From an uncultured Bacteroidota bacterium (GTDB lineage Bacteria > CLD3 > SB21), in contig CAYPYN010000002.1 in the NCBI GenBank assembly GCA_964415295.1, positions 24,485-88,484 of the forward strand: a DNA stretch of 64,000 nt, read 5' to 3'. This document shows, one piece after another, positions 17,997 through 64,000 of this stretch; position 1 is the stretch's first letter; each line of letters opens with the position of its first letter. The notes below the pieces were generated by a model that was not told where the DNA came from, made no database searches, and saw only the letters and a list, made by a program, of their open reading frames with translations. A program made the position numbers and the translations under genes.

Positions 17997-18037
17997 GGTT
18001 TTCTCCTAATAAATGATTAAAAATTTTCAAAGATCGG

Positions 18038-18235
18038 TTACTTCTTACCCAGCATGGTCAAAACGCGGTTCACATCGGTATCGTCCACAAGGTGTTTCCC
18101 GCCCAGATCGCGTTTGCGGCGATTGGACTTGCTGCTTAAAAGATGGCGCGCGGTCGATTTTTTGCGCATAAGTTTGCCTTTACCCGTTTGCTGAAATCGT
18201 TTTTTGGCGCCGCTGTTGGTTTTTACTTTCGGCAT
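18038..18235 (-). CDS. rpmI: 50S ribosomal protein L35
   Basis: 65-aa product MPKVKTNSGAKKRF... typical of L35. Confidence 0.9.
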   Translation of the reverse strand: MPKVKTNSGAKKRFQQTGKGKLMRKKSTARHLLSSKSNRRKRDLGGKHLVDDTDVNRVLTMLGKK

Positions 18236-18339
18236 ATTTTATTCTCCTTTTAGTTAATTTTCTTTCGTTGGCAACTATCTGAACCAAAGTCATCAAGACA
18301 CAAAGTTTTTCTCTTTAATATGTCTGAAGACGTTGTTAT

Positions 18340-18831
18340 TTATTTTTTGACAAAAACCATTACCATGTTGCGTCCTTCAAATTTCATCTGGTCGTCGAGC
18401 TTACCGACGTTCTCCAATTCCTTAACCATGCGTTCCGCCAGTTCGATACCGAACTCTTTATTGGCTATCTCACGGCCTTTGTAGACGATGACCAATTTGA
18501 CCTTGTATCCATCCTTAAGGAAATTGACGGCGTGTTTCATCTTGAACTGGTAGTCGTGTTCGTCGGTCGCCGGACGAAAACGGAGTTCTTTTACCTCGCC
18601 CTGGTGCGTATGTTTCTTCCGCGCATCCTTTTCCCTTTTCTGGATCTCATAGCGGTACTTGCCATAGTCGATGATCTTACAGACCGGCGGCTCCGCGTTG
18701 GGAACGATCTCCAACAGGTCAAGGTTTTCTTCGCGTGCGCGGCGCAGCGCATCGGGCGTATCTACGATGCCCACCTGCTCGCCGTTGGATCCGATGAGGC
18801 GGACTTTTGCCACACGGATATGCTCGTTCAT
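18340..18831 (-). CDS. infC: Translation initiation factor IF-3
   Basis: IF-3 N- and C-domain pattern (IRVAKVRLIGSNGEQVGIV..., ...MVFVKK). The ORF-track start is the ATG at 18831, but an in-frame ATC at 18855 with AAGGAGAG 5-7 nt upstream is a candidate non-AUG start. Confidence 0.85.
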   Translation of the reverse strand: MNEHIRVAKVRLIGSNGEQVGIVDTPDALRRAREENLDLLEIVPNAEPPVCKIIDYGKYRYEIQKREKDARKKHTHQGEVKELRFRPATDEHDYQFKMKHAVNFLKDGYKVKLVIVYKGREIANKEFGIELAERMVKELENVGKLDDQMKFEGRNMVMVFVKK

Positions 18832-18907
18832 CCTGATCTTATCTTCTTTACTGATGGCGTCTCTCCTTCTTAATAATGAGTAATGAACAATGAATAAAAT
18901 TAGATAA

Positions 18908-46984: not shown

Positions 46985-48370
46985 TCACTTATGCACCTTC
47001 CTCACGAAATCCTCTACTTCAGGAACACCGCCCTGGAGAACGAGATAACCGTTGTAAGGCTCGCGTTCGGTGATGTCGTAACCGATCGGCGTAAGCATCA
47101 TCTTTTTTACTTCGACGGGATCTTCGGTCTGGCCGAGCACCCAGCCGAGCTTGATATAAGCCGTCTCGGGAAGCATATTGCCCAGCGGCACGACGCCTTT
47201 GGCCATCATGTCGCGCCCGGTGTCATAAACGAACATGTGCACGTAGCCCCAGATCGTCTGCACAACCATGAAGACCGACACGTCCTTGGCTTTGGCCTCT
47301 TCGATGGCAGGATAGAGTTCTTTATTTACATGTCCCAGCCCTGTGCCGACGATGACGATGCCTTTGTAGCCTTTTTCGATCATGGAGAACATCACGTCGG
47401 GTTTCATGCCCGGGTAATAATACAGCATCGTCGCTTTTTCGCTGAAGAACGGATAGATGTCCACATTCTTATCCTTTCGGCGGTGATTGTATTCCTTTTT
47501 GATCGGCGTGATCTTTTTTCTCGTGACCATCGCCACGGGCGTGTCACCGATCGTACGGAAAGTTGATCGATACGACGAATGCATCTTGCGCACGCGCGTG
47601 CCGCGGTGCAGTAAGCCGTATTCATCCGACGTCGGGCCGAACATACACACCATGACTTCCGCGATGTCGGCATTGCCGGCGGTATACATCGCGTGCATGA
47701 GATTCAGCGCCGCATCGGAACTCGGCCGGTCGGACGACCTTTGAGACCCAACCATGATGATGGGCACAGGCGAATTCTGCACCATGTACGTCAGGACGGC
47801 AGCGGTATGCTGGAGCGTGTCCGTGCCGTGGCCGATCACGATGCCGTCGATGCCGTGGCGTATCTCTTTGACAATGGCATGCGCCAGCGCGATGTATTGC
47901 TTCGGGCCCATATTCTCGCTGAATACGGCGAAGATCTTCTCCGTCTCCAGATTGCAGATCTCGGCGAGTTCGGGCACCGCGCCGTAGAGTTCCCCCGGCG
48001 AAAAGGCCGGGATCACGGCGCCCGTTCGGTAGTCGAGCCTCGATGCGATCGTGCCGCCCGTGCCGAATAGTTTCACGTACGGCAGGCCTTTGGTGGTCGG
48101 AAACTGTTTCTCCGGTATCTGGTAATTGGCTTTTTTGTAGCCGGTTTCGCGGATGGCGGTAATGGTCTTCACGTCCACGCCGATATTGTACCCCGACGCG
48201 ATCTTCAGAACGATGTGTTCGTCGTCGGTATTCTCCGCACGCGGGAGTATCGTTCCCTGAAAAAGTCCGCGCGTGGATTCGATATCCACCGACGCCCATA
48301 CGCGGGCCGTGTATTTTTTGAGGACCTCTAAGGCGCGTCCTTTGTAGCCCTGGAATATGTTGTCGCTCAT
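46985..48370 (-). CDS. gatD: Glutamyl-tRNA(Gln) amidotransferase subunit D-like (archaeal-type GatD)
   Basis: 461 aa; GatD-specific N-terminal domain (GYKGRALEVLKKY..., DEHIVLKIASGYNIGV) followed by asparaginase-type domain with GTGGTIAS. Confidence 0.75.
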   Translation of the reverse strand: MSDNIFQGYKGRALEVLKKYTARVWASVDIESTRGLFQGTILPRAENTDDEHIVLKIASGYNIGVDVKTITAIRETGYKKANYQIPEKQFPTTKGLPYVKLFGTGGTIASRLDYRTGAVIPAFSPGELYGAVPELAEICNLETEKIFAVFSENMGPKQYIALAHAIVKEIRHGIDGIVIGHGTDTLQHTAAVLTYMVQNSPVPIIMVGSQRSSDRPSSDAALNLMHAMYTAGNADIAEVMVCMFGPTSDEYGLLHRGTRVRKMHSSYRSTFRTIGDTPVAMVTRKKITPIKKEYNHRRKDKNVDIYPFFSEKATMLYYYPGMKPDVMFSMIEKGYKGIVIVGTGLGHVNKELYPAIEEAKAKDVSVFMVVQTIWGYVHMFVYDTGRDMMAKGVVPLGNMLPETAYIKLGWVLGQTEDPVEVKKMMLTPIGYDITEREPYNGYLVLQGGVPEVEDFVRKVHK

Positions 48371-48930: not shown

Positions 48931-50952
48931 TTAAGATATCGACGCTTGAACCTTCCCGCTCAATTCCGTCAGATTCATATTCCCCAGCGCCATGCGGCTC
49001 AATTGGCCCATCACCCAGCGGGAACAGGCGCCGTCCAGACTGGAATTATCGATCTGCGAGAATTTTTTGATCATGAACGGGATCAGTTCCGTGATCTCGT
49101 TCTTGGTCGCGGCTTTGTAACGGATATTGAGCAATACGGAATCAAAATCCAGTTTGGGATGATGGTAATATTCCACCAGCATCATACCCGCAATATTCAG
49201 TTCCATCCCGCGGTCTTTGAGGAACTTGAACAGGTCGTAGATCCGGTCGTAACTGAAATCCTTGGCGGTGGTATAATGATTCTCAACATATTTCATCTGA
49301 TGCCCGAGGAAGATACCGGTGTGGCGGTGCGGGATGCCGAGTTCGTCATGGATCTTCTCCATCAGCCCTACGAGATTCTTTTTGAGAATGAATGTATACG
49401 TGTCTTCCGGAACATTCCACGAGCGGAGCTGTTGTATACGGTCAAAGACGTCCACAGGAATGGCGCGGCGGATCGCTTCGATCTTGTCGTCATCGAGCGG
49501 GATAGGTGCGGAATCGGTATCCGGGTACATGCGGTCTGCGCCGGGAAGAACGCGTTCGAATACCGTCGTACCGTCATGCGATGACTTACGCGTCTCATTG
49601 GGAACGCCTTTGAAGGCCATGCGGCAGCGTTCCTCCACCGTCTCGATCGCCGTGGGAATATCCTCTTTCGGCCCCCACAGAACGATCCATGCATCATCGC
49701 CGCTGCAATTAAGCAATTTAACGATTCTCTCCGACTCCTGTTCGGCAATGTGCGTACGCATATTCTCCGAATGGATCATATTGGGTTTCTCAATACACGC
49801 GATCACTTTGAGCCGCGATGATATCTCATCGGCGAACATCTGACCGGGCTGAGTAAAATGCGATAATATACTCTTGAAGCCCGGCAGTCGAACGGCTACG
49901 ATCTCGTGTTTGGCAACTTTCGCCGCGGCCATCGGTTCGTAACTGAACGTCCAATCGTCCGGTTCAAGTTTGACGGATTCTGTTTTCCACGAATCCGGAT
50001 TGCGGACCTTTTTTTTCAGAAGTTCCACGATGCGCAGGAGCGCGAACTGCCGGAATGCCTCGTTGTGCGTCAATTGGGGCATCCAGCGCGTGTGCGCAAC
50101 GCCTTTGATCTCGACGCGTGTGCCGCCGCGGCAGCTGACATTGACGTCGGCGCGGGTGGAACCGATACCGGTCCGGACTTTTCCAGTACTGCGGTTCAAA
50201 AAACGGATATAATCCGCGCCTTCTTTTACTTCATCGGGATTCACAAAATCCGCATGCGTCACCGTTTCGATCAGCGGCATGCCGAGACGGTCCGTCTTGT
50301 ACACGCGCACATGGCCGATGTCGGAAATTTCCCGGCAGGAATCCTCTTCGATGCTCAACTGGATGAGGTTGACCGTCTTGTGTTTCAGCTGGATCTTCCC
50401 GCCGACGCCGATGATGGCCGTTCTCTGGAATCCGGTCGGAATACTGCCGTCGAGGTACTGCTTGCGGGTGATGTGAACTTCTCCCACGATATTCATCTTA
50501 TTCAAGATCGAGATCTCCAGCGCGATATCGAGCGCTTCCGGATCCATGGCGAAAGGCGGCGTATCGTCCACCTCATACGTACACGCCGTTTTATTTTTGA
50601 TGCGGTAAATAATGTTCTTTCGGGTCTTGAATTCCATCAGCGCCGTACCGTCGTACTCGCCCAGTTCGCTCAGCGTCGGGCGCATGTGGCGAATGACCTC
50701 CGCGTCGTAATCGTCGTGGGCGTTGTATTTTCCGGCCGGACAGCGGCAGAAAAGTTTCCGCCGTGTCAGCAGCTGCTGGTGAACTTCCAGTCCGGACTTG
50801 AATCCGATCCGGTCGTAATCTTCCTGCGTGGCATCTTTCCGGCTGACGTATCCGATGGCTTGTTTGCTTTGTTCGTAATTCTGCTGGGGATCAAAAGGCT
50901 GGTTCATGAGGATTGTGCACCATGTGAAGCATCGATTGATGTTGTCTTGCAA
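48931..50952 (-). CDS. gatE: Glutamyl-tRNA(Gln) amidotransferase subunit E-like (archaeal-type GatE)
   Basis: 673 aa; GatB/E catalytic core with GatE-type signature DYDRIGFKSGLEVHQQL...RKLFCRCP and insertion-sized extra length versus GatB. TTG start at 50952; alternative ATG at 50907. Confidence 0.75.
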   Translation of the reverse strand: MQDNINRCFTWCTILMNQPFDPQQNYEQSKQAIGYVSRKDATQEDYDRIGFKSGLEVHQQLLTRRKLFCRCPAGKYNAHDDYDAEVIRHMRPTLSELGEYDGTALMEFKTRKNIIYRIKNKTACTYEVDDTPPFAMDPEALDIALEISILNKMNIVGEVHITRKQYLDGSIPTGFQRTAIIGVGGKIQLKHKTVNLIQLSIEEDSCREISDIGHVRVYKTDRLGMPLIETVTHADFVNPDEVKEGADYIRFLNRSTGKVRTGIGSTRADVNVSCRGGTRVEIKGVAHTRWMPQLTHNEAFRQFALLRIVELLKKKVRNPDSWKTESVKLEPDDWTFSYEPMAAAKVAKHEIVAVRLPGFKSILSHFTQPGQMFADEISSRLKVIACIEKPNMIHSENMRTHIAEQESERIVKLLNCSGDDAWIVLWGPKEDIPTAIETVEERCRMAFKGVPNETRKSSHDGTTVFERVLPGADRMYPDTDSAPIPLDDDKIEAIRRAIPVDVFDRIQQLRSWNVPEDTYTFILKKNLVGLMEKIHDELGIPHRHTGIFLGHQMKYVENHYTTAKDFSYDRIYDLFKFLKDRGMELNIAGMMLVEYYHHPKLDFDSVLLNIRYKAATKNEITELIPFMIKKFSQIDNSSLDGACSRWVMGQLSRMALGNMNLTELSGKVQASIS

Positions 50953-52258: not shown

Positions 52259-53266
52259 CTACGCCCATTTTCCGAACCGTAGAAATTTGAAACCATCCGT
52301 ATGTTCATTCAATATTCTCTTCTTCTCATCATCCGAAACAAAGAATAATCCCGTTGCCAACGCATCGGTATCGCGGCAATTGTCGCCGATCACCGTTACG
52401 CTGGCAAATCCGGTGCGCTTTGGCATAGCCAGTTTCGGATTGATCAGATGGTGATACACATGACCTTCGGAAATGAAATACTGTTCATACGATCCCGAGG
52501 TAGCCACAGCCTGATCCTTCAGAGAAATCACTTCAATGATCTCCGAAGGGTTCTCCGGATCCTTTACTCCGACGCGCCAGGCTTTATCTTCGGAATTACC
52601 GCCAAGCGTTGCAATGTCGCCGCCAAGCCTTACCAGAGCCTGATCAATGCCTTCCTTCGCCAATACGGCTTTGGCGCGTTCCGATCCGTAACCTTTTCCA
52701 ATACCGCCAAGATCGATCTTAACGTCGGGCGTCAGCAGGCGAACCGTTGCGTGCGAGCCGTTTCTCGTCAGAAGGATCTTTTCCGAGAATTTAAGGTCGG
52801 CGAAACGAACCCATTGTTTTTCCGGCGGCGGTTCCGTCCGGTGCTTTATATCCCAGATGGAAGTGACTTTGCCCAAACCCGGTTCAAAGAATCCTTTCGT
52901 AGCATGCGACCAATGCAAAGCGCGTTCGATCAGGTCGGCCGTTTCATTGGAGATCCTGACATCCTGCGTATATCCCAGAAGATTGATCTGTCCTATTTCG
53001 CTGTTGTCCGAGAAATAGGTCAGCAATCGTTCCACACGGTTCAATTCCTCGTACGCGCTTTCGATGGCGCGAAACGCGAGACGTTCGTCGTCATGGACGA
53101 CCTGGATCTCGCCGATCGTTCCCATGAGCGGGCGCGTCATGCTGTACACGCGCCGGTTCCTGAATAGCACGGGACCAAGCCCTGCTCCCGCGATCAGGAA
53201 CAACGAACCTGCACCGATCTTTAAGAATTTTCTCCGGTCTATACCGGTCTTTGGGTTCTTCTCCAT
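52259..53266 (-). CDS. apbE: FAD:protein FMN transferase (ApbE family), Tat-signal
   Basis: Twin-arginine signal (DRRKFLKIGAG); ApbE-type motifs (GGIGKGY...); last gene of the Rnf cluster. Confidence 0.75.
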   Translation of the reverse strand: MEKNPKTGIDRRKFLKIGAGSLFLIAGAGLGPVLFRNRRVYSMTRPLMGTIGEIQVVHDDERLAFRAIESAYEELNRVERLLTYFSDNSEIGQINLLGYTQDVRISNETADLIERALHWSHATKGFFEPGLGKVTSIWDIKHRTEPPPEKQWVRFADLKFSEKILLTRNGSHATVRLLTPDVKIDLGGIGKGYGSERAKAVLAKEGIDQALVRLGGDIATLGGNSEDKAWRVGVKDPENPSEIIEVISLKDQAVATSGSYEQYFISEGHVYHHLINPKLAMPKRTGFASVTVIGDNCRDTDALATGLFFVSDDEKKRILNEHTDGFKFLRFGKWA

Positions 53267-53269
53267 ATG

Positions 53270-53455
53270 TTACCTTTCGCAAACTTTTTCGTCGTTGCAT
53301 CCATCGCATCGCCGTGCATGATCGGAACACGAAGAAGGAAGGTGTTCGAAATGATTCTTCGTTCGCATCTTACGGGCCAGGAACTGCACACCAAGCCAGC
53401 CCGTAGTCAGACAGGTTGCCGCTGTGATTCCGATGATGTATTGAGTAATTTCCAT
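53270..53455 (-). CDS. Small membrane protein with 4-Cys tail, NqrM/DUF539-like
   Basis: 61 aa: one TM helix (IIGITAATCLTTGWLGVQFL) then C-x6-C-x2-C-x5-C (CSDHARRCDGCNDEKVC); sits between rnfA and apbE. Confidence 0.4.
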   Translation of the reverse strand: MEITQYIIGITAATCLTTGWLGVQFLARKMRTKNHFEHLPSSCSDHARRCDGCNDEKVCER

Positions 53456-53463
53456 TCTAATAA

Positions 53464-54042
53464 TTAGTTTGAGCTGAATAAGCCGGCGAATCCCATGAAC
53501 GCCATGGAAAGCAATCCGGCGATGATAAGGCTCAGCGCCGTTCCTTGAATCAACTTGGGCACATCCATTACTTTCGTTTCTTCCCTAATGCCGGCCATCA
53601 GTACCAGCGCCAGCGTCATACCTCCTCCGCCTCCGATGGAATAGATCAGTCCCTGCACTAACCCGTATTCCTTCGTTGTCTGGAAAAGCGCCAGCGCCAG
53701 GATCGCGCAGTTGGTCGTGATCAGGGGAAGATAAATTCCAAGCGCCTTAAAAAGTTCCGGACTGAGTTTCTTTATGACCATTTCAACGAACTGCACCGTG
53801 CTGGCGATCACCACGATATAACTGATCAAACCCAGGTACGGGGCGAACGGCAGGATGTACGTATTCAACGCCCACGTGCACAGCGATGTAATGACCATAA
53901 CGAAGATATTGGCCAAACCCATGCGGAAAGCCGTCTGAACCCGGTCGGATACACCCAGGAACGGACAGATGCCGAGGAACGACGACAGCGTGAAGTTATT
54001 GATCACGAGCGCTGAAACGAATATCCAAAGCAGATCACCCAT
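53464..54042 (-). CDS. rnfA: Rnf electron-transport complex subunit A
   Basis: RnfA/NqrE pattern (LVINNFTLSSFLGICPFLGVS..., ...LPLITTNCAILA). Confidence 0.85.
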   Translation of the reverse strand: MGDLLWIFVSALVINNFTLSSFLGICPFLGVSDRVQTAFRMGLANIFVMVITSLCTWALNTYILPFAPYLGLISYIVVIASTVQFVEMVIKKLSPELFKALGIYLPLITTNCAILALALFQTTKEYGLVQGLIYSIGGGGGMTLALVLMAGIREETKVMDVPKLIQGTALSLIIAGLLSMAFMGFAGLFSSN

Positions 54043-54049
54043 CTTGCAC

Positions 54050-54697
54050 CTATGCTTTCTCCGCCAGTTTCATTTTCGCGCGTTCCGCCTGTTTACTCTT
54101 ATACCAGTTCACGAACAGCATCATAAAACCTAATAATAAAAATCCGCCCGGAGGCAGGATCATGATGACCCAAGGTTCGAAATGCGGACCGAAAAGGGAA
54201 ATACCAAACAGTGATCCGTTACCCAGAATTTCCCTGATTCCGCCCAGAGCCAACAACGCCAGAATGAACCCTACTCCCATTCCGAGCGCGTCCAATACAG
54301 AGAGCCACGCCGTATTCTTGTACGAAAAGGCTTCCTGTCTGCCCAGAATGATACAATTCACAACGATCAACGCGATAAATGCGCCGAGTTCTTTATGGAT
54401 CTTCGGAAATGCAGCCTGCAGTGAAAAATCAACGGCCGTCACAAAGGTTGCAATAATAACGACGAATGTCGTGATGCGGACCTGCTTGGGGATCCAGTTC
54501 CTCAAAACGGACACAAGCCAGCAGGATGCCACGAGAACAATCGTGGTCGCCAGTCCCATGGCTAAACCGTTGACCGCGGTATTGGTCACGGCCAGCGTGG
54601 GACACATGCCCAGTACGCTGACAAAGGTCGGGTTCTCTTTCCAGAGTCCTTTGATGAATTCCTGATATGCGCGTCCGTGTTCTTCCATCGAACTCAT
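54050..54697 (-). CDS. rnfE: Rnf electron-transport complex subunit E
   Basis: RnfE/NqrD pattern (VLGMCPTLAVTNTAVNGL, ...IALIVVNCIILGR); start overlaps the rnfG stop. Confidence 0.85.
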   Translation of the reverse strand: MSSMEEHGRAYQEFIKGLWKENPTFVSVLGMCPTLAVTNTAVNGLAMGLATTIVLVASCWLVSVLRNWIPKQVRITTFVVIIATFVTAVDFSLQAAFPKIHKELGAFIALIVVNCIILGRQEAFSYKNTAWLSVLDALGMGVGFILALLALGGIREILGNGSLFGISLFGPHFEPWVIMILPPGGFLLLGFMMLFVNWYKSKQAERAKMKLAEKA

Positions 54698-55380
54698 GGT
54701 TTTGTTCCGTAGGTTAATTGATTCTTCTGCACGTAGGCATCAATCGCCGTTCGCCATGTATCCAATGACTTCTGCATCGCACGCACGATCGCCTTGGACG
54801 AGATAGTGGCACCGGTGATCGTCTCTACCTGATTGGGCTGGGTTTTCTTGCCAGTTTTCACGGGTTCGATCTTGGGATCAACGGCCAGCGCGGTGAAATT
54901 GGATACAAAATGTTTATCCTTGTAGATCTTATCCCCTAAACCGGGTGTTTCCTTGCTGTCGAGTACTTCATAACCGATCACCATTTTTCCGACACCGTCA
55001 AAACCGTAGAGAATCCTAAGCATGTCGGCAAATCCCGGTTCGTTGCCGGGGATCGCAAAACCGATCACGGCGCCTTTTTCGTTGTACCCCAGAAAAATGC
55101 GAGGAACGGAACGATCGGACTGATTGACCTGCCTGACAAGCTGCCCGTTCTCGAGTATCATGGCCTCAAACTTGTTGCAACCCGGCAATACGCGGTATAC
55201 CGCTTCCTGCAAAGCTTCCTCTTTATTACGTTCAATGATGGGCAGCGTGAATACGTACGCACAAACCAGAACCAATCCTGAAAAGAATCCGGCTACCGCC
55301 AGCGTCGCGATCATCTGAAAGGAACTGGTTTCCTTCGTGGATAAGACAGGTATCTCTGTATGTATCTTCTGTTCTTCCAT
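54694..55380 (-). CDS. rnfG: Rnf electron-transport complex subunit G (FMN-binding)
   Basis: ATG at 55380 overlapping the rnfD stop by 1 nt; N-terminal TM helix; FMN-binding-domain motif (ITGATISSKAIV). The ORF-track 5' extension to 55536 overlaps rnfD. Confidence 0.75.
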   Translation of the reverse strand: MEEQKIHTEIPVLSTKETSSFQMIATLAVAGFFSGLVLVCAYVFTLPIIERNKEEALQEAVYRVLPGCNKFEAMILENGQLVRQVNQSDRSVPRIFLGYNEKGAVIGFAIPGNEPGFADMLRILYGFDGVGKMVIGYEVLDSKETPGLGDKIYKDKHFVSNFTALAVDPKIEPVKTGKKTQPNQVETITGATISSKAIVRAMQKSLDTWRTAIDAYVQKNQLTYGTKP

Positions 55381-56381
55381 TATTTCGTTCCGTAAACCCG
55401 GTATGGCGTAACCCTGTTGATCAGCGGCGTTACGGCATTCATCAGCAATATGGCATACATCACGCCTTCCGGCAATCCTCCGAAGATGCGGATCAGCACG
55501 ACCAGGAATCCTATACCCGCGCCGAATATCCAGCACCCTTTGATCGTAAAGGGCGAAGTCACCGGATCGGTTGCCATGAACACAGCACCCAACAAAAGTC
55601 CGCCGGAGAATATCATGTGCATCGGCGACGGGTAGATCGCGGGATTGACCAGATGCAGGATGCCCGATAGTAGTGCGGTTGCGGTCAAGATGGAAACCGG
55701 TATGTGCCAGTTGAATATCTTTCTCATAGCCAGATAAATGCCGACAAGGATGATGATCAGTCCGGAAGTTTCGCCGAGTGAACCGGCGGTATTCCCGATC
55801 ATCAGATTAAATAGGTCCGTAGCTTCGTGCTGGAATTTCATCGCTGAAAGCGGCGTGGCTCCCGTGAGGGCGTCCACTTTTTCTCCCTGGAAAAATGGAA
55901 TGGCCAGATTAGCACCGCGCGCCGATAAAAATTGACCGTCCGGAGCCGACCACGTGGTAATGGCTGTGGGAAAAGCCGCTTGCAGAAAGGCCCGGCCGAT
56001 CAGCGCCGGATTGAAAATGTTCTGTCCCAATCCGCCCCAGATCACTTTGCCCAGAACAACGGCGGCAATGCCTCCCAAGAACGCCATCCAGAGCGGAAAT
56101 CCCGGCGGCAGGGTCAGCGCGAATAAAAGCCCCGTGATCAAGGCGCTTCCGTCTTTCAGCGATTTGTAACGCGGTTTATCATTTGAGAAGAACCATTCTG
56201 TCGCAAAGCAGGACGCTACGCCGGTTGCGCACAGCAGGAAAGTGCTCAATCCGAAAAAATAATAAGCTGCGCCGATAACCGGGATGAGGGCGAAAACAAC
56301 CTGGTACATGATCCAAGGCGTGCTCACCTCATCATGCAGAAATGGAGACGTTGAAAGATTCAATTTAGACCGGTCTTCCAT
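55380..56381 (-). CDS. rnfD: Rnf electron-transport complex subunit D
   Basis: ATG at 56381 overlapping the rnfC stop by 1 nt; polytopic membrane protein with RnfD/NqrB pattern (...GATPLSAMKF..., FMATDPVTSP). Confidence 0.85.
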   Translation of the reverse strand: MEDRSKLNLSTSPFLHDEVSTPWIMYQVVFALIPVIGAAYYFFGLSTFLLCATGVASCFATEWFFSNDKPRYKSLKDGSALITGLLFALTLPPGFPLWMAFLGGIAAVVLGKVIWGGLGQNIFNPALIGRAFLQAAFPTAITTWSAPDGQFLSARGANLAIPFFQGEKVDALTGATPLSAMKFQHEATDLFNLMIGNTAGSLGETSGLIIILVGIYLAMRKIFNWHIPVSILTATALLSGILHLVNPAIYPSPMHMIFSGGLLLGAVFMATDPVTSPFTIKGCWIFGAGIGFLVVLIRIFGGLPEGVMYAILLMNAVTPLINRVTPYRVYGTK

Positions 56382-57724
56382 CAGTTCTTTGCCCTTCGTT
56401 CCCGAATAATACTTTTTGCCACGCGAAAACTCTGCACTAACGGAATGCCCGACGGGCAGACGAACGAGCATGACGCGCATTCAAAACAATCCATGATATG
56501 CAGCGGTTCCATATCCTCGTACAATCCTTTTCTCGCCAGAAGTCCCATTACGGAAGGATTGAGATACATCGGACAGACTTCCACGCAGCGCGCACAGCGG
56601 ATGCATTTGTATTCCGTCATATCCTGAACTTCATTATCCGTCAACACCAGAACGCCGGAAATACCTTTGGTCACCGGCACGTCGAGCGACTTCTGGGCAA
56701 TGCCCATCATCGGCCCGCCGAGCAGGATGCGAACGGCTTTGCTGGTCACTCCGCCGCAATAGTCGATCAGATGTTTGATAGGTGTTCCTACGGGAACCAT
56801 CAGATTCGCCGGACGCCGAATGGCCGTTCCCGTCACCGTCACCACGCGTTCGATCAGAGGAACCGACTGCGTGAAATACTGGGCCAGCGCCACCAGAGTT
56901 CCGACGTTGGAAACCAGCGTCTCAATATCAATAGGCAGTTTACCGGATGGAACTTCTTTGTCGAGCACCGCTTTGATCAGCATTTTTTCCGCACCTTGCG
57001 GGTATTTGACTTTCAGACCGATGACTTCATAGGTCACGTTCTGCTTTTTAACTTCTTCTTTCAGAACACGGATCGCATCGGGCTTATTATTCTCAATGCC
57101 TATATAAACTTTTTCCGCCGGTATGAAATGGCGCATGATCGTCAGGCCTTCGACCAGCTCTTTCGCAAATTCGACCATGATGCGGTGGTCGGCGGTCAGG
57201 AAAGGTTCGCATTCGCATCCGTTGGCGATGATGTAATTGCAGCGCTTGCCTTCGGGAATGGAGAATTTCACATGCGCCGGAAAACCCGCGCCGCCGAGGC
57301 CCACGAGTCCGGCCTGCTGAACGCCGTCTACAAATTCCTTGAACGAAAGATCCTGCCACGGACGCGGCTTCGGCATATCCACGGTCTGCGCAGAAAAAGG
57401 ATCGGCCTTGATCTTGATCGCCTGAACAAGCAATCCGTTGGGATGTTCACCGAGCTCGATCGCCGTAATCGTTCCGGTGACGGGAGCGTGCTGCGCCACA
57501 GACACAAAAGAAGCCGGTTTGGCGATCATCTGTCCGCGTTTCACGTGCTGGCCTTTTTGTACGATCGGGATCGAAGGCGCACCGGCGTGCTGGGAAAGCG
57601 GAACCACATACTCATCCACAAAGGGCATACGTTCCACGGCCAAAGTGCCGGTGAATTCTTTATACTCTTCCGGATGAACCCCGTGGTGAAAGGTCAAACG
57701 TTCTGTTGAATGATTATCTGTCAT
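56381..57724 (-). CDS. rnfC: Rnf electron-transport complex subunit C
   Basis: RnfC pattern with NADH-binding region (GLVGLGGAGFPAHVK) and two 4Fe-4S motifs (CIRCARCVEVCP, CFECASCSFVCP). Confidence 0.85.
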   Translation of the reverse strand: MTDNHSTERLTFHHGVHPEEYKEFTGTLAVERMPFVDEYVVPLSQHAGAPSIPIVQKGQHVKRGQMIAKPASFVSVAQHAPVTGTITAIELGEHPNGLLVQAIKIKADPFSAQTVDMPKPRPWQDLSFKEFVDGVQQAGLVGLGGAGFPAHVKFSIPEGKRCNYIIANGCECEPFLTADHRIMVEFAKELVEGLTIMRHFIPAEKVYIGIENNKPDAIRVLKEEVKKQNVTYEVIGLKVKYPQGAEKMLIKAVLDKEVPSGKLPIDIETLVSNVGTLVALAQYFTQSVPLIERVVTVTGTAIRRPANLMVPVGTPIKHLIDYCGGVTSKAVRILLGGPMMGIAQKSLDVPVTKGISGVLVLTDNEVQDMTEYKCIRCARCVEVCPMYLNPSVMGLLARKGLYEDMEPLHIMDCFECASCSFVCPSGIPLVQSFRVAKSIIRERRAKN

Positions 57725-57727
57725 AGT

Positions 57728-60700
57728 TCAATTCTTGTGACCGTAACCCGACAGTTCCATCAATTTATCCCGCAGTTTCGCTTTGACGGATTCCATCTGT
57801 GCGTTTTCCTGCGACCGAAGCTTTTCCTCGTATTCCGCCTTGATTTGTTCCAAAGCCGTATTCTGCTTGGCTGTCCATTCTTCGTCCAGGCGTTCTTTCA
57901 GTTTCTGCGGATACGGCGTGAGCATACCGGCGATCTCGCGGAGCGTTCTCCACGATAGATGCGCCGCTTCGGCGGCCCGCATGATTTCAGACGGAACTTC
58001 ATACTTCATTGTCCGATCCTGTTCCCCGATCCTGAGAACGCAGCACCGCTTGCCCGGACGATCATTTTCAGCAAGTGACAGATACTCGTTCATCGCCATG
58101 CCGTTTCTGTCATCGTCCGGTAATGCAGCGAAGGCATCACGGTATTCTTTCTGTTCGAACGCCCAATCGGCGAAGGTAACTATGTAATTACCGCCTGAAT
58201 AACTGACCGGCTTCGAAAAATCATCATACGATTCCGGGTTCGCGCCAAGATCCATGGACTCGGAATACAGCGGTTTCTTGTCGCTTGGTATAAAACGCAG
58301 CGCCGGGAAGGCTCGCGAACGAAGCGCCAATTGAAACATGGATGGATAATGCATGGCGATATCCGCCGGAGCATCCGGAGTCAGAACCCTGAAGAGCCCG
58401 GGATCGGCATGACGCAGGCCTTCGGTCAGCCCTTTGAAAAGATGTGCCGGATCGGCCAGCGAGGCCTGAAGGAAATAACATTTCTTAAGCGACAATATCG
58501 ATGTAGTAAGAGCCATTTGCTCTTGCCGGCTTTGGGCAGAACTCTTCACCGGATCGAACACAAATATTTTGACAGGCAGTTCCGAAGTCAGAAGTTCGAT
58601 CACCGATGGCACGTTCATTCCGGAGATCATAGCGGGATCGACAAAAAGCAGAACCGGAGGCACCATAGACTTTTCGGCCTCATTCAGATCGCTCCACGCA
58701 AGGCGCGCGATCTTAGCGTCATGCACATGCGGTTGATACTGATTTTGCGACTCGAGTTCCGCGCGGCGCAGTAATTTGATATTGTCCAACATTTGCCGCA
58801 CGTGACCTCTTACCAGGCCCAATATGAACGGCGCCGACGAAGGATCGTCCATTACGATGGCCGGTGAGGTGAATACGTTGAACGGCACCGATTTAGCCCA
58901 GTTCAATCCGTCGGAGCTGGACAGAACCGCGCCGAAACGGGATCGGCCTGTTCCTGCCGGACCTTTGGAGAGAACGAATGACAACTGCTTCAGATCTTTG
59001 ATCAGTCCGGCTACCCGTTCCACCCAGGCCGTTTCGATCACGCCGAATCGCTGGGTCTCGCTCAGTTTAGCCATGACATTATCTACAGTGACCCGTGCGG
59101 TTTCACCGGACAAACTGTTCAAAAGATTCTCGACATTGGCGATCGGCAGTGCGTCCTTCAGTTTGTTCTGGATCTTGTCGGTCAGGTTCTGAATGTATTG
59201 ATCGATCTCTTTCAATCTCTGATTGATCTCCGACTGCCGCATCGATTCCGTCACCGACGCGATCACATGCATCATGATCTTCTGCGAAACGCCGTCCTTT
59301 GAAGCGATGCCGCCGGCCATGGACATATAATAATTACGGCTCAGCATGATCGCCGCGATCGGATCATACGTGTCATCTTTGATAAGGGTTTGTATGATAT
59401 CTCCGCCGGTATCGGGCAGTTGTTCCCACACGCGGAAAGCGGATCGATGTGTATGCGATCGTTCCGCGCTTTGCGGCACCATCTCCAACGCGCCATCCGT
59501 GCATACATTGACGCACATTCCGCAGCCGGTACAGGCCTGAGGGTTGATCACGGCAGAATAAAGCAGACCGCTGCCTTTCATCTGGGACTCCGTCCGAGTG
59601 AAGAATCGATCCGTGGCCGAAACCGGCAGTTCGCGGACAAAATTTTCAACGGTCTTGATCTCTCCGGTTAAAGCCGTCAGTTTTTCGCCTTCGATCTTCA
59701 TTTGTGCAGCTAATTTTTCTGAAGAAGCCTGAAGAACGTCGGTGATCGAATATAGGTCTTTCACACCGGAAATCGCTTGGTTGATCAGTTTCGACAAATT
59801 TTTGATAACGGGCGGCGTCAGTTGATTCATGACAGTTCCCGCCGCCTGGGCCTTTTCAACCGCCGTTTTGATCATCGCTTCCGCGGAGATCACGATCGCC
59901 GGCATGGCCGATTCCGGGCAATACACGGAGCATTGTCCGCATCCGGTACACTTTTCCGGTGAGATAACGGGAATGAAAGAACGCGCCGCTCCTGCATCGG
60001 CAAAATTAGCCGTCGCCGCCGGCATGACAGGCACTGCTTGCAAAGGATCGGCCACTAATTCGCCCGTCTTCCCCTGCTCATAAAATATCCCCGTACGGTC
60101 GTAGAACTGGGAAACCTTGGAGTACGGCGGCCCGTGATCCTCATAGCGGCGCAGGGTCAGCGGTAATTCTTTGACCGCGGCCTGTTTTACAGACAACGCC
60201 GCTGATTCCAGTTTTTTTATTTCGGTCAGGCCTTTGGTAAAATGGTCTTTATTGCTATCCGATAAAACGATCCCTAATTCGTTCGTTACGAATTTTTCAA
60301 AATTCGCGGCTTCGGATTCGGCAACGGTTTCATTGAAGAACGGCGCGGTCGGCGTTAGCATAACTCCCTGCAGCCATTCGGGATCTTCAACGGCACCTAC
60401 AACGTGTTTTAAGTGCAATTTAAGTTCAGATACTTTCGATCGAACGGAATCTTCCAGTTCAATGACCTCTCCTTCATGACCGGATACGATCAAAACCGTT
60501 GCGCCGTTTTTCAAGCGGCCAAGACTGCCGGGACGATTGATAGAGACGGCATCCGTAATAAGGCAATCGATATCGTTCTCTTTTTCCAGAGTATACGGCC
60601 ACGGTTCTCGGGTTAAACTTAACTGTTTATCACCGGCCTTGACACGGGCCTTCAACCTGAATGCCAGCCATTCCGCGGCAGACTCTACAGAATCCATACT

Positions 60701-62059
60701 CTGTGGATGAGAGAAACCAATGGAAAACGTTTTATCAGAGGAGATTTCCGACTTTTCGGCGGCTTTCAACATGCGGCTTTCGAGCGCCGGGAAATCGCGA
60801 TTCAGATTTTGCAACAATATCTGCTGTTTGGGATACGAGGATGATTGGCGGGTAAGTTGCGAGCCAATAAAGAACCGCCTCTTACCTCCTTCAGCCATGT
60901 TCTCAAAAACAGAGACAAGATCGACATAATTCAGTTCTCCGTAGCGTCCGGCATATAACGTCGGCCGCTCACGTTCGCTGAGAGAAGGAAGTTCAGGATA
61001 AACCAGTGTTTTCTTATTGGAGGAATTCTGAACAGCTTTGTCCAGTGCAGACAGAACGTCCGTATACAACACGCTTTCGTTTTCAGCGCTCAGACTTTCA
61101 AGTATGGTCACGGCCTTCTTGCCGCGAAGTCGTTCACAGATCTCAGATTCAGGAAATGGCTTTGAAACATTCACATTCAAACAGCCGGCTTTGATCTTTT
61201 TTGATCTCAAATGATCCACAACCGCTGCGGCTTTTTGAAACGCGCTTCCTTGAACGATCAATATGTATTCCGCATCATTCATCTTATGTGAAGTGACGCC
61301 TGAGTAGTTTCGGCCCGTCAGTTTGCCGAATTCCGTACAAGCCTGCATCAGAATCGAGGAAGCGGAATCCCCGATGTAGATATCGTGTGCTGCCTTCTCC
61401 AGGGTCATGGCGCCGGGGTCTTTTGAAACGCCATTGATCGTCGGATAATCAAAATGGAACCAATTCGGAATGCGGCGGCGTGTCTTTCCGAAGATCATTT
61501 TTTGCGCCGTATTCGGACATTCGACGAAATCGTCAGCATCGCCCAGAAATCCGATCAGGGTTTTCGGATCAGGTATATGGACGTTTTCGAAGACGGCATT
61601 ATCGTAAGCCACTACGACGGGTATCATCGCCTGTTCGGCTGTTTTATGTGCAATAATGGTAAGATCCACAGTTTCCTGAACGCAGGACGAACGAAGAAGA
61701 ATACAGCCGGTTCCGGCAATCGCCTTCAGAAGTTCGGGATCGGAAACATCCGCATGAATAACATAAGGCACATGACGGCGAACGGCTTCCATCAAAGATG
61801 TGAGTTCACGGCCGGTATTCTTCGAATCCATTTGGCCTGAAGCCCTTAAGCCGGACATGGCCAGCCCCATGGCAAACGATGCACCGGCGTTTTGCACGCT
61901 GCTTCCGATCAGCGGCCGCCCAAAGATATTTTGACGGCTTGATGATACCGGATCCGTAAGACTTTCACTAACAGCCGATTCGATGATCCGAATCGCTTGC
62001 GATCCATTGGCTGTTATGCTTTTGCCCACGACCAGATCGCTATTTCTTTCTAACCTCAT
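57728..62059 (-). CDS. Pyruvate:ferredoxin-oxidoreductase-like giant protein with degenerate TPP-binding region
   Basis: 1443 aa; N-terminal PFOR domain I/II-like segments (RQNIFGRPL, LRSSCVQETVDLTIIAH, KLTGRNYSGV, AGRYGEL); two ferredoxin motifs (CTGCGQCSVYCP, CTGCGMCVNVCT); C-terminal about 560 aa without the PFOR C-x2-C, GDG or NTGGQ motifs. ATG overlaps rnfB stop (ATGA); stop 3 nt before rnfC ATG. Confidence 0.6.
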   Translation of the reverse strand: MRLERNSDLVVGKSITANGSQAIRIIESAVSESLTDPVSSSRQNIFGRPLIGSSVQNAGASFAMGLAMSGLRASGQMDSKNTGRELTSLMEAVRRHVPYVIHADVSDPELLKAIAGTGCILLRSSCVQETVDLTIIAHKTAEQAMIPVVVAYDNAVFENVHIPDPKTLIGFLGDADDFVECPNTAQKMIFGKTRRRIPNWFHFDYPTINGVSKDPGAMTLEKAAHDIYIGDSASSILMQACTEFGKLTGRNYSGVTSHKMNDAEYILIVQGSAFQKAAAVVDHLRSKKIKAGCLNVNVSKPFPESEICERLRGKKAVTILESLSAENESVLYTDVLSALDKAVQNSSNKKTLVYPELPSLSERERPTLYAGRYGELNYVDLVSVFENMAEGGKRRFFIGSQLTRQSSSYPKQQILLQNLNRDFPALESRMLKAAEKSEISSDKTFSIGFSHPQSMDSVESAAEWLAFRLKARVKAGDKQLSLTREPWPYTLEKENDIDCLITDAVSINRPGSLGRLKNGATVLIVSGHEGEVIELEDSVRSKVSELKLHLKHVVGAVEDPEWLQGVMLTPTAPFFNETVAESEAANFEKFVTNELGIVLSDSNKDHFTKGLTEIKKLESAALSVKQAAVKELPLTLRRYEDHGPPYSKVSQFYDRTGIFYEQGKTGELVADPLQAVPVMPAATANFADAGAARSFIPVISPEKCTGCGQCSVYCPESAMPAIVISAEAMIKTAVEKAQAAGTVMNQLTPPVIKNLSKLINQAISGVKDLYSITDVLQASSEKLAAQMKIEGEKLTALTGEIKTVENFVRELPVSATDRFFTRTESQMKGSGLLYSAVINPQACTGCGMCVNVCTDGALEMVPQSAERSHTHRSAFRVWEQLPDTGGDIIQTLIKDDTYDPIAAIMLSRNYYMSMAGGIASKDGVSQKIMMHVIASVTESMRQSEINQRLKEIDQYIQNLTDKIQNKLKDALPIANVENLLNSLSGETARVTVDNVMAKLSETQRFGVIETAWVERVAGLIKDLKQLSFVLSKGPAGTGRSRFGAVLSSSDGLNWAKSVPFNVFTSPAIVMDDPSSAPFILGLVRGHVRQMLDNIKLLRRAELESQNQYQPHVHDAKIARLAWSDLNEAEKSMVPPVLLFVDPAMISGMNVPSVIELLTSELPVKIFVFDPVKSSAQSRQEQMALTTSILSLKKCYFLQASLADPAHLFKGLTEGLRHADPGLFRVLTPDAPADIAMHYPSMFQLALRSRAFPALRFIPSDKKPLYSESMDLGANPESYDDFSKPVSYSGGNYIVTFADWAFEQKEYRDAFAALPDDDRNGMAMNEYLSLAENDRPGKRCCVLRIGEQDRTMKYEVPSEIMRAAEAAHLSWRTLREIAGMLTPYPQKLKERLDEEWTAKQNTALEQIKAEYEEKLRSQENAQMESVKAKLRDKLMELSGYGHKN

Positions 62060-62934
62060 CTTAATTCTTCCTCAGGTATGATTTCAACCCGGCCAACCGG
62101 CAATAAGGTGGTTGGTTTCTTATTGAATTGTTTTCCTTCGACCCATACGATCGCGTTCGTCGGGCAGCGCCGCGTGGCGTCGGGAGTTGCCAGTTCGTTC
62201 TTACTATAGTCAATGACCGGCAGATTGTTCTTCATTTGTATAAGTCCCGGCGCCGCATCGGATACGCAGCGGGTACACGCATTGCAGGCGACGGAACAAC
62301 GTTCCAGCGCATCGTCGCCCTCCAGAAGGGATTTGCACTGCACAATGAGCTTCTGGCTTACCGGCATGATGACAAAAAGATTCTTTGGACATATCTCGAC
62401 GCAGTCGTTGCAGCAGGTACATAATTCCGGCGTTACGACCGGCAGACCGTCCTCGTTCATCGTGATAGCTTTGAATTCGCAGACGTGTTCGCAGTCCGCA
62501 AGACCCAGGCAGCCCCAGACGCAATCTTTGGGACCGCCGGTCACCATCGCGGCGCTGCGGCAGGTTCTCTGCCCTAAGTAGTCGGCTTGATTGTGGCTTT
62601 CTTGCTTCCCGCCGGCGCATAATACCCGCGCCGTACGCTTTTCCTCATGTCCTGCGGCGACGCCGAGGAATGCGGCAATAGACTCCACTGCGGTTGGTGA
62701 ACTGACCGTACATTTTCCCGGGGCGGATTCTCCGACAACAAGGCTCTCCGCAAACGCATGACAGCCGGGCTTACCGCAGCCGCCGCAGTTCGTTCCGGGC
62801 AGCATGCCTTCCACCTGCTCAATGCGCGGATCTTCGTATACGCGGAGTTTCTTGTAGGCGACCGCAAGAAGGATCGCAAAGAATACCCCGAGTCCTACCA
62901 TGATGATGACGGCAACTATTATTTCTCCAACCAC
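62056..62934 (-). CDS. rnfB: Rnf electron-transport complex subunit B (Fe-S)
   Basis: N-terminal TM helix, LPGTNCGGCGKPGC motif and additional Cys clusters (CVWGC, CTCCNDCVEICP, CNACTRC); GTG start at 62934 (alternative ATG at 62901). Confidence 0.8.
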   Translation of the reverse strand: MVGEIIVAVIIMVGLGVFFAILLAVAYKKLRVYEDPRIEQVEGMLPGTNCGGCGKPGCHAFAESLVVGESAPGKCTVSSPTAVESIAAFLGVAAGHEEKRTARVLCAGGKQESHNQADYLGQRTCRSAAMVTGGPKDCVWGCLGLADCEHVCEFKAITMNEDGLPVVTPELCTCCNDCVEICPKNLFVIMPVSQKLIVQCKSLLEGDDALERCSVACNACTRCVSDAAPGLIQMKNNLPVIDYSKNELATPDATRRCPTNAIVWVEGKQFNKKPTTLLPVGRVEIIPEEELR

Positions 62935-62971
62935 GATCGATTCCTGACTTGAGGCCTGCAGGCCTGCAATC

Positions 62972-64000
62972 TTAGTTAAACGATGCCGCGCGTTTGATCA
63001 GATCATCCAGTCCCGCTTCTGATGAATTGAGCGGCATACCGGGATGAATACATTTGGCCGGACATTTTTCGGCGGCCTTGACCAACTGCGCATACGTACC
63101 GGCTTTGGCATCGGCTATGAATGCCTGCTTGGTCGAATTATATTTGAACATGTTCGGATTCACATTGATACACTCATTACAGCTCGTGCAGCGGAAAGAC
63201 TCCAGCCAAGGCTCGGAAGATACCACCGCTTCTTCCTGCGGTTCAGACTTCGGCGCCTCGGTCGTTGCTTCGGTCTTTTGCGTAACGGTTTCCTTCGCGA
63301 CAGCGGCCGCGGGTTTAGCGGAAGGCGTTACAGCCAGAGTATCCAGATCGAGCAGAATTCCCGAGAGCTTTTCCATGGCCTCGCGTGCGGTCGTCTTTCG
63401 GACTTCTTCCACATCCGCCGCATGTTTTTCCTCCAGAGCCTCTATTTCCTTCTTCTTTTCTTCCAGAAGATCCTGCGTGACCTTTTCAATCGCTTTTGCA
63501 ACATGATAACTGTTGATCCCTCCGAACTCCTGTATGAAATGCCAGAAATCCAGACGCTCCTGCGCCACGAGCGCCACGTAATGAGTGACCGCAACTTTGT
63601 GTAAGACGTTTTCCTTATCAACCATCCAAATAAATGGCACTTTGGCATACGCGTCGGTTGAAGGCATCTTCAGGTAATCGGCAAATAATACCAGGTCGTC
63701 CGACCAGAATTCAGAAGGAACCTCTTTAAGGTGTTCCACAAAATGCATGTCTTGTCCCGCAAAATCGGCAAAGCTAAACGGAATGGACCATGTATCTTTC
63801 TGACCTTCAGCCGATTCAATTTCAAATTCATACACCGGCCAATCCTGATCGGCCTGTGGATTCTTCTCAACATTAAAACGGCTTCCCCACTGCAAACCCT
63901 GCTTGTGATCGTAAGTGAATTCCGGGAACAACCGGCTTTCCAGCGCGGCTCCTGACCAAACGTAAGGAATGCTGTTTGAATTGTCCTTTGGCGACAGCAC
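62972..64000 (-). CDS. Hypothetical protein with C-terminal ferredoxin-like Cys motif (N-terminus beyond window)
   Basis: Frame open from the window end; C-terminus has CTSCNEC ... CPAKC (C-x2-C-x2-C ... C-P) single-cluster ferredoxin-like pattern; coiled-coil/acidic middle region; 37 bp upstream of rnfB on the same strand. Confidence 0.45.
   Translation of the reverse strand: MLSPKDNSNSIPYVWSGAALESRLFPEFTYDHKQGLQWGSRFNVEKNPQADQDWPVYEFEIESAEGQKDTWSIPFSFADFAGQDMHFVEHLKEVPSEFWSDDLVLFADYLKMPSTDAYAKVPFIWMVDKENVLHKVAVTHYVALVAQERLDFWHFIQEFGGINSYHVAKAIEKVTQDLLEEKKKEIEALEEKHAADVEEVRKTTAREAMEKLSGILLDLDTLAVTPSAKPAAAVAKETVTQKTEATTEAPKSEPQEEAVVSSEPWLESFRCTSCNECINVNPNMFKYNSTKQAFIADAKAGTYAQLVKAAEKCPAKCIHPGMPLNSSEAGLDDLIKRAASFN

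Follow-up and report, generated by a model that had tools for sequence, protein, structure and literature searches.

An rnf gene cluster of uncultured Bacteroidota with two PFOR-derived proteins that have lost the residues of TPP catalysis

The distal part of a 64,000-nucleotide stretch of DNA from an uncultured Bacteroidota bacterium (contig CAYPYN010000002.1, positions 24,485 to 88,484; hereafter, the window) carries on its minus strand the genes of an Rnf complex, and within and beside this operon lie the genes of two large proteins related to pyruvate:ferredoxin oxidoreductase (PFOR), which are called here PFL2 and Up (working names coined in this analysis). Both are shown to be paralogous derivatives of a long type of PFOR, in which the fold has been kept and the sets of residues for catalysis with thiamine pyrophosphate (TPP) have been lost. 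They belong to a conserved cluster with some 13 genes, the distal ten of which are found in the window, and whose full order is korA-like, korB-like, Up, rnfB, PFL2, rnfCDGEA, a gene for a small Cys protein and apbE, followed in close relatives by two genes for CBS-domain proteins. The reading that we lean towards is that PFL2 and Up are accessory subunits linking KorAB to Rnf, as a scaffold and as a built-in electron path.

The presence of a PFOR-derived gene between rnfB and rnfC, already pointed out in the first-pass annotation of this DNA, is borne out by its open reading frame (ORF) and by its Pfam and NCBIfam matches. The profile of PFL2 is colinear with the solved single-chain PFORs, running from domains I, II and III/IV through the ferredoxin domain to the end of domain VI; domain V consists of a ferredoxin domain with an insert of ~125 amino acids that is predicted to be helical, and the C-terminus of a degenerate domain VI followed by a 54-residue helix. 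The protein was modelled with AlphaFold2 in two parts, with a mean predicted local distance difference test score (pLDDT) of 78.8 for residues 1-900 and of 78.0 for residues 861-1443, and in Foldseek both parts match the Moorella PFOR 6CIN, the first with an E-value of 3e-37 and a TMq of 0.59 over ~950 columns, and the second with an E-value of 7e-7 and the fold of the TPP-binding domain. The eight Cys residues of domain V are also present, both in the PFL2 of the window and in most of its relatives.

The catalytic equipment, in contrast to the fold, has disappeared. The TPP-Mg motif GDG...(D/N)T.YSNTGGQ is replaced in every PFL2 and Up sequence aligned, with no match to PF02775; the YPITPS loop is gone from the PFL2 family through a 15-residue deletion; the catalytic Glu (E-x-x-S/G-E) and the substrate Arg are absent; and there is no Cys in PFL2 or Up at the three aligned positions of the proximal cluster (CxxC and GCSS). 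The comparison covered these three ligand positions, the fourth ligand being located further on in canonical PFOR, and the family alignment has no conserved PFL2 Cys downstream of the ferredoxin domain. The same motifs are all kept in the canonical and long PFORs that were aligned. In agreement with these losses, PFL2 scores 120 bits against the PFOR equivalog TIGR02176 and does not reach its cut-off of 911.35. Judging from its residues, PFL2 is certainly no working PFOR, and the proposal of the first-pass annotation that it would be an enzyme for electron input had to be abandoned.

Is PFL2, then, a gene in decay? The loss of the catalytic motifs, together with the fact that all carriers of the gene are metagenome-assembled genomes (MAGs), could be explained by a decaying pseudogene, or by an rnfB-PFL2-rnfC order originated during assembly or binning. 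That explanation is, nevertheless, effectively refuted by a reading frame that stays open over 1443 codons, by the mean column identity of 47% and the many invariant residues among the 19 members of the family, by the relatives found when the C-terminal half of PFL2 was searched against 1.84 billion cluster representatives (1515 at E<=1e-3, of which 375 reach E<=1e-30) and by an identical gene order in 48 independent assemblies. Among the best 150 matches, 118 are full-length proteins, and the YSNTGGQ and PITP[ST] motifs are absent from every one of them; both CxxCxxCxxxC motifs are found in 101, one in 3 and none in 14. By its pattern of conservation, PFL2 is an old, selected pseudoenzyme family.

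Up, the gene cut by the edge of the window, encodes the second degenerate fragment. Its homologues have ~850 amino acids, so that ~509 residues are missing here, and the GTG listed as its start at position 64000 was discarded as an artefact of the window edge, the homologues being longer. Residues ~293-850 of Up align to residues 1071-1688 of the long PFOR P0022, residues 327-539 share 28% identity with the degenerate domain VI of PFL2 (E 5e-18), and the GDG, CxxC and GCSS positions have all been lost in this domain VI/VII fragment. An alignment of 40 or more homologues reveals a C-terminus formed by a conserved helix (TAREAMEKLSxILLDLD), a linker and a ferredoxin domain, in which the length of the linker varies (roughly 35-60 amino acids) and the Cys motif of the ferredoxin is conserved in every full homologue. 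Such a C-terminus resembles a ferredoxin held by a flexible tether. The ferredoxin Cys motif that had been noticed in the partial gene is therefore real, whereas its description as merely a ferredoxin-domain protein falls short of a second degenerate PFOR fragment. A library search with the partial Up returned mainly fragments. The possibility that PFL2 and Up are the two halves of a split PFOR was also considered and ruled out, since the catalytic motifs are lost in both.

The origin of the two proteins is found among the long PFORs (subgroup P0022-P0034, 1550-1695 amino acids), to which PFL2 aligns end to end with 27.5% identity and with which it has in common the ~125-amino-acid insert between the cluster motifs. 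In several long PFORs, P0022 and P0024 among them, there is in addition a C-terminal extension that ends in a Fer4_13 ferredoxin. Two metagenomic contigs (L050, positions 155-18501, and L052, positions 3317-18488) contain a sister variant of the cluster, whose slot between rnfB and rnfC is occupied by a motif-intact long PFOR of 1688 and 1695 amino acids, respectively, with its own tethered ferredoxin. Both begin with korA-korB (duplicated in L050), a degenerate protein of ~335 amino acids weakly related to Up, and rnfB, and continue after the long PFOR with rnfCDGEA, an ORF of 48-58 amino acids and apbE. The same slot thus apparently holds an active PFOR in one lineage, to judge from its motifs, and its dead paralogue in that of the window, and the motif-intact PFOR indicates that the slot is a site of electron input. 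In a simple history, Rnf would first have incorporated a long PFOR; a partial duplication would then have given rise to Up and PFL2, with catalysis being passed on to KorAB. Other long PFORs stand alone, away from rnf. One of them, from Magnetococcales (1680 amino acids; L053, positions 5442-13380), is directly followed by a 958-amino-acid Nfn/GltD-like protein with Fer4_20, Pyr_redox_2, NAD_binding_1 and DHODB_Fe-S_bind domains; the pair may be a soluble 2-oxoacid:NAD(P)+ module, and suggests a theme in which this type of PFOR is paired with a ferredoxin:NAD(P) oxidoreductase.

The conservation of the gene order was evaluated in species-representative genomes. A scan with the single PFL2 protein found no relatives in them, and the family alignment then succeeded, yielding 48 loci, all from MAGs, to whose six-frame ORFs the proteins of the window were compared by BLASTP. 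The carriers are mostly Bacteroidota (Saprospiraceae, Lewinellaceae/Phaeodactylibacter, Haliscomenobacter, Cyclobacteriaceae, Cytophagales, Flavobacteriales and Chitinophagales), and the others belong to SAR324, 'Deltaproteobacteria', Pseudomonadota and Competibacteraceae. In all 48 loci, on contigs of up to 3 Mb, the order is colinear with that of the window, and rnfC-D-G-E-A is present in the 27 loci (27/27) that have at least 6.5 kb downstream of PFL2. The first-pass annotation had named the absence of this order from related genomes as what would speak for an assembly artefact; its recurrence in 48 independent loci is far beyond chance and rules such an artefact out, and its distribution over Bacteroidota families, SAR324 and Competibacteraceae indicates that the whole cluster is either inherited or transferred together. 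The nearest relatives of the window are L003 (74% identity in Up and 82% in RnfB), L037/L035 and L054, the last of which has the order RnfB-PFL2-RnfCDGEA, a 66-amino-acid ORF, ApbE and two CBS genes. Among the 27 loci whose downstream sequence is long enough, apbE is adjacent in just 5. The CBS pair follows apbE in L001, L037 and L054 and not in distant loci; it may encode lineage-specific regulators of the cluster. In two genomes, insertions of 2.3-2.8 kb separate rnfC from rnfD (L039, positions 7968-10775, with a DNA methylase and an unknown ORF; L043, positions 17822-20156, with a 618-amino-acid ORF without Pfam match), which indicates that the operon tolerates interruption in some genomes.

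The same loci reveal what precedes Up. In every locus that has 7.5 kb or more of upstream sequence (33/33), a korA-like gene, a korB-like gene, Up and rnfB follow one another in that order, so the unit does not begin near position 64000, given that intact KorA/KorB-type genes are located directly upstream of Up in all these relatives. The KorA-like protein (620-635 amino acids; domains assigned in L037 and L003) is a fused gamma-alpha subunit with POR, POR_N and PFOR_II domains, passes TIGR03710 with 519.3 bits (cut-off 482.75) and has the Magnetococcus 2-oxoglutarate:ferredoxin oxidoreductase (OGOR, 6N2N) as its closest solved structure (3.5e-79). The KorB-like protein (317 amino acids) is a beta subunit with TPP_enzyme_C and PFO_beta_C domains, which stays just under the cut-off of TIGR02177 (243.3 bits against 261.9), and its GDG..N and CxxC motifs are intact in 35 of 35 orthologues. 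Profiles and motifs show these two to be a predicted two-subunit 2-oxoacid:ferredoxin oxidoreductase that has kept its catalytic motifs. Further upstream of korAB, the closest relatives have multihaem cytochromes c and a NapC/NirT-type cytochrome (L037, positions 882-5556; L035; L003, positions 47-5764), to which L037 and L035 add a Rieske protein and a cytochrome b, and L003 a 936-amino-acid multihaem/cytochrome b561 fusion; this neighbourhood is absent as a conserved feature in more distant loci.

Under the reading of PFL2 and Up as accessory subunits, both would bind to RnfB/RnfC on the cytoplasmic side and bridge KorAB and Rnf, and the tethered ferredoxin of Up would swing between the donor and acceptor clusters, replacing the free ferredoxin pool. 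The assembly would then work as a membrane-bound, ion-translocating 2-oxoacid:NAD+ oxidoreductase. Taken one step further, and here the proposal becomes tentative, KorAB, Up, PFL2 and RnfABCDGE could constitute a single membrane supercomplex with this activity, with a scaffold and a tethered ferredoxin in place of the pool. The net reaction of the assembly would be 2-oxoacid (2-oxoglutarate or pyruvate) + CoA + NAD+ <-> acyl-CoA + CO2 + NADH, coupled to ion translocation: in the oxidative direction, NADH and an ion gradient would be formed, and in the reverse direction both would drive reductive carboxylation. Between the 2-oxoacid couple and NAD+ there are ~180-200 mV, a gap that would be conserved oxidatively and paid for by the membrane potential reductively, as in the Rnf of Azotobacter. 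The enclosed electron path would also shield low-potential electrons in lineages exposed to oxygen.

The genes might instead be co-expressed for one pathway and their products only loosely coupled, with PFL2 and Up acting as soluble, oversized ferredoxin-like carriers that take electrons from KorAB, or from other enzymes, to an Rnf that is otherwise ordinary, and no stable supercomplex being formed. Neither protein has a predicted membrane segment, both have ferredoxin-type clusters, long relatives of PFOR are also found away from rnf genes, and membership in an operon is by itself no proof of a complex; all of this fits such carriers. Nonetheless, a dead enzyme of 1443 amino acids would be a costly ferredoxin, PFL2 proteins without clusters are still retained, the constant location of PFL2 between rnfB and rnfC and its 4-nt overlap are typical of subunits, and the tether of the ferredoxin makes sense only if the body of Up is anchored. 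On these grounds, an arrangement of loose carriers is regarded as rather unlikely.

More improbable still appears a complete change of function, by which PFL2 and/or Up would have become a sensor or regulator (of 2-oxoacids, CoA or nucleotides) that gates Rnf, a chaperone of Fe-S assembly or an enzyme that does not use TPP. It would account for the invariant non-catalytic residues of PFL2 (R194, R196, W200 and D204, and the stretch G1033-R1041), for the retention of the gene in lineages where the Fe-S motifs have been lost and for the CBS-domain proteins downstream in close relatives. The Pfam and NCBIfam scans, by contrast, gave no known ligand-binding signature, both ferredoxin motifs in 101 of the 118 representatives speak for electron transfer as the usual role, and in the sister variant the very same slot is taken by a PFOR with intact motifs.

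Several observations weigh against the accessory-subunit reading itself, and against the supercomplex built on it. One or both Fe-S motifs of PFL2 are lost in L016, L037, L038 (cut by a contig end), L043 and L045, so PFL2 is not an obligatory wire everywhere; since several PFL2 proteins lack one or both motifs, its role as scaffold may be primary and that as wire dispensable. The strongly conserved motifs RRIPNWF..D.P and GPxGxGRSR could reflect a new ligand or function rather than a pure scaffold. The genes korAB and the N-terminal part of Up lie beyond the window and are extrapolated from relatives with 74-86% identity; the role given to the small Cys protein is drawn solely from its position and architecture; and complex formation and electron routing are read purely from gene order and motifs. 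As for the distribution of the motif losses, they include three MAGs of Flavobacteriales, and the gene stays in place in them.

The Rnf core around which all this is arranged is shown to be complete and ordinary, as the first-pass annotation had it, with its six subunits reaching the curated NCBIfam cut-offs (Table 1). RnfB combines a membrane anchor at its N-terminus with an FeS domain and polyferredoxin domains; RnfG and RnfD have flavinylation-type [ST]GAT motifs (ETITGATIS and DALTGATPL, respectively); and the paired Cys typical of the intramembrane Fe-S site are found in RnfA (ICPFL and TNCAI) and RnfE (MCPTL and VNCII). RnfABCDGE is hence placed in the Rnf family, with a predicted ferredoxin:NAD+ activity and translocation of Na+/H+. 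The flavin transferase at the end of the cluster, whose targets had been presumed to be RnfG and RnfD, is likewise confirmed by its match to PF02424 (233.8 bits, gathering cut-off 25.6) and by the [ST]GAT motif in both targets, and it does not reach the E. coli-type ApbE equivalog NF007774 (117 vs 498). Its N-terminus is of the twin-arginine type (DRRKFLK...), with the signal DRRKFLKIGAGSLFLIAGAG, and ApbE, apparently exported by the twin-arginine (Tat) pathway, would flavinylate RnfG and RnfD.

Between rnfA and apbE lies the gene of a 61-amino-acid protein with one N-terminal transmembrane helix, a TKNH motif and a Cys-rich tail. A hidden Markov model places a homologue directly after rnfA in 21 loci, the motif of the family being GW..VQ..A(K/R)K..TKNH...C..C.CGG..C, and a profile search gave 141 matches, among which the 120 listed have 53-79 amino acids and no Pfam domain, and are called 'hypothetical' wherever their source names them. 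The label 'NqrM-like', applied to this protein at first, holds for the size, for the architecture (a single helix and Cys residues) and for the position by apbE, and fails in sequence: among 17 members of the family, no match to NqrM/DUF539 (PF04400) or to any other Pfam family was accepted at E<=10, the hits to RseC_MucC (E 0.23-3) having been dismissed as matches of the transmembrane helix. The exact 61-amino-acid sequence is absent from a collection of 15 billion proteins in which its neighbours RnfC, ApbE and PFL2 are present, and consequently it has probably never been called as a gene. In terms of its alignment and recurrence, this is a conserved unannotated family. Given that RnfA and RnfE have paired Cys, a role in their Fe-S maturation is reasonable, and by analogy with NqrM the protein would help to load the intramembrane Fe-S centre.

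As to the layout, the ten tightly packed minus-strand genes that had been described from the letters are real in position and content, since ORFs, translations, Pfam and NCBIfam agree, and all the overlaps between start and stop codons reported for them are exact. Read in the sequence, rnfB/PFL2 and rnfG/rnfE overlap by 4 nt (ATGA), and rnfC/rnfD (TGATG) and rnfD/rnfG (TAATG) by 1 nt; the gaps are of 3 nt between PFL2 and rnfC, 7 nt between rnfE and rnfA, 8 nt between rnfA and the small ORF and 3 nt between the latter and apbE. The widest gap inside the cluster, of 37 nt, separates Up from rnfB. This tight spacing of ten genes is compatible with a single transcription unit. A consensus for sigma-70 promoters, which may not suit this lineage, gave 13 sites versus 12.6 expected in shuffled sequence, and a scan for intrinsic terminators 16 versus 15.7; being at the level of shuffled sequence, both speak neither for a division of the unit nor for its integrity. 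In the 37 nt that separate Up from rnfB there is a near-tandem palindromic element, GCAGGCCTGCAGGCC, at 62953-62967, which is not terminator-like because it has no T-run.

Table 1. Coordinates of the cluster genes, of motifs within PFL2 and Up and of the adjacent CBS genes, numbered along the window (NCBIfam values are scores with their cut-offs)
Feature	Position	Strand	Evidence or remark
Two CBS-pair proteins, 134 + 182 aa	51117-52075	minus	183-nt gap after apbE
apbE, 335 aa, flavin transferase	52259-53266	minus	Pfam PF02424, 3.2e-69
Small Cys protein, 61 aa	53270-53455	minus	between rnfA and apbE
rnfA, 192 aa	53464-54042	minus	TIGR01943, 231.3 (cut-off 229.3)
rnfE, 215 aa	54050-54697	minus	TIGR01948, 240.3 (cut-off 213.4)
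rnfG, 228 aa, FMN_bind domain, ATG at 55380	54694-55380	minus	TIGR01947, 104.5 (cut-off 102)
rnfD, 333 aa, ATG at 56381	55380-56381	minus	TIGR01946, 324.2 (cut-off 207)
rnfC, 447 aa	56381-57724	minus	TIGR01945, 527.1 (cut-off 246)
PFL2, PFOR-like, 1443 aa	57728-62059	minus	POR_N (partial), PFOR_II, two separated 4Fe-4S motifs
PFL2 second [4Fe-4S] motif, CTGCGMCVNVC, Cys843-853	59501-59533	minus	retained in most loci
PFL2 first [4Fe-4S] motif, CTGCGQCSVYC, Cys704-714	59918-59950	minus	four Cys invariant in family alignment
rnfB, 292 aa, GTG start	62056-62934	minus	PF04060; TIGR01944, 70.3 (cut-off 68.7)
Up, C-terminal 342 residues, cut at window edge	62972-64000	minus	C-terminal Fer4_13, 8.6e-9
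Up ferredoxin domain, ~80 residues, single-cluster, CTSCNEC...CP	62975-63214	minus	Fer4_13
Up linker, ~42 aa, low-complexity Pro/Ala/Thr/Glu/Lys	63215-63340	minus	not conserved in sequence

The rest of the window is ordinary chromosomal DNA of a bacterium of the Fibrobacteres-Chlorobi-Bacteroidetes (FCB) type, with threonyl- and prolyl-tRNA synthetases (ThrRS, ProRS), ribosomal protein S1, a CarboxypepD_reg/OMP beta-barrel protein and a histidine kinase; an Rfam scan of the window found one tRNA only, and the guanine-plus-cytosine content is uniform (0.44-0.53), which gives no hint that the cluster lies in a mobile island. Next to the CBS pair on its downstream side, also on the minus strand, are located a 673-amino-acid GatB_N protein with a large insert, GatE-like (48931-50952), and a 461-amino-acid GatD-like protein with GatD_N and asparaginase domains (46985-48370). 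GatDE is the archaeal-type Glu-tRNA(Gln) amidotransferase, unexpected in a bacterial contig of the FCB type.

Rnf is regarded as a pump of six (sometimes seven) subunits whose partner in electron exchange is free ferredoxin. If it exists as proposed, a widespread variant with a dedicated oxidoreductase, a scaffold made of dead enzymes and a tethered ferredoxin would change that picture, since low-potential electrons would be channelled without a soluble pool, and it would be a clear example of how a pseudoenzyme becomes part of a respiratory machine. This variant would serve mostly aerobic or microaerobic lineages (Saprospiraceae, Lewinellaceae, Cyclobacteriaceae, SAR324 and Competibacteraceae), allowing them either to obtain extra energy from the oxidation of 2-oxoglutarate or pyruvate or to perform a reductive carboxylation driven by NADH and the membrane potential. 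The uncultured Bacteroidota and SAR324, which are abundant, would thereby possess a new 2-oxoacid step that either conserves energy or is driven by it and fixes CO2. Two unannotated families are flagged in any case, that of Up/PFL2 and that of the ~60-amino-acid Cys protein, whose current labels are 'hypothetical', 'ferredoxin' or, misleadingly, 'pyruvate-ferredoxin oxidoreductase'. Full-text literature searches retrieved no account of an rnf operon with a PFOR-like gene inside it, nor of an assembly of Rnf with a 2-oxoacid:ferredoxin oxidoreductase; a 2025 review on Rnf/Nqr does not mention PFOR or oxoglutarate, and a 2014 paper on the evolution of rnf/nqr contains none of the relevant terms. 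The fact that the carriers are all uncultured may explain this silence.

Compared with known systems, the Rnf core itself has nothing unusual: it shares with the canonical complexes of Acetobacterium woodii, Clostridium tetanomorphum and Azotobacter vinelandii, and with Rsx of E. coli, the six subunits, the flavinylation motifs and the paired Cys, and B-C-D-G-E-A is the usual rnf order in Bacteroidota. Unlike in them, two large TPP-less proteins derived from PFOR are encoded here in or beside the operon, with PFL2 placed between rnfB and rnfC, and a 2-oxoacid oxidoreductase is encoded directly upstream in the relatives. PFL2 resembles the single-chain PFORs of Desulfovibrio africanus (1B0P) and Moorella thermoacetica (6CIN) in its fold, in the order of its domains and in the two [4Fe-4S] motifs of domain V, and the long PFORs in the helical insert, whereas the C-terminal tethered ferredoxin of the latter reappears in Up; both proteins differ from PFOR in having no TPP-Mg motif, proximal-cluster Cys, YPITPS loop, catalytic Glu or substrate Arg. 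The end of the cluster recalls the nqrABCDEF-apbE-nqrM operon of Vibrio, whose 3' end likewise encodes a flavin transferase together with a small Cys-rich protein of one helix (PMC12174285, PMC6209661), although the order is reversed here, with the small protein preceding apbE, and this protein has no detectable sequence relation to the NqrM/DUF539 of Vibrio. The KorAB of the relatives is like the OGOR of Magnetococcus marinus (6N2N) in its fused gamma-alpha subunit, its beta subunit and its intact TPP and Cys motifs, but it differs in being fixed beside rnf and dead paralogues of PFOR. Finally, the conversion of 2-oxoacid, CoA and NAD(P)+ into acyl-CoA, CO2 and NAD(P)H is known from the 2-oxoacid dehydrogenase complexes and from the pyruvate:NADP+ oxidoreductase of Euglena. 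The proposed assembly would be comparable to them in its net reaction and in the use of a tethered carrier domain or of a direct fusion of PFOR with its reductase; in those systems, however, either the E1/E2/E3 families are unrelated or the reductase is a soluble flavoprotein, whereas here the ion-translocating Rnf is proposed to take that place, so that the step would conserve or consume membrane energy.

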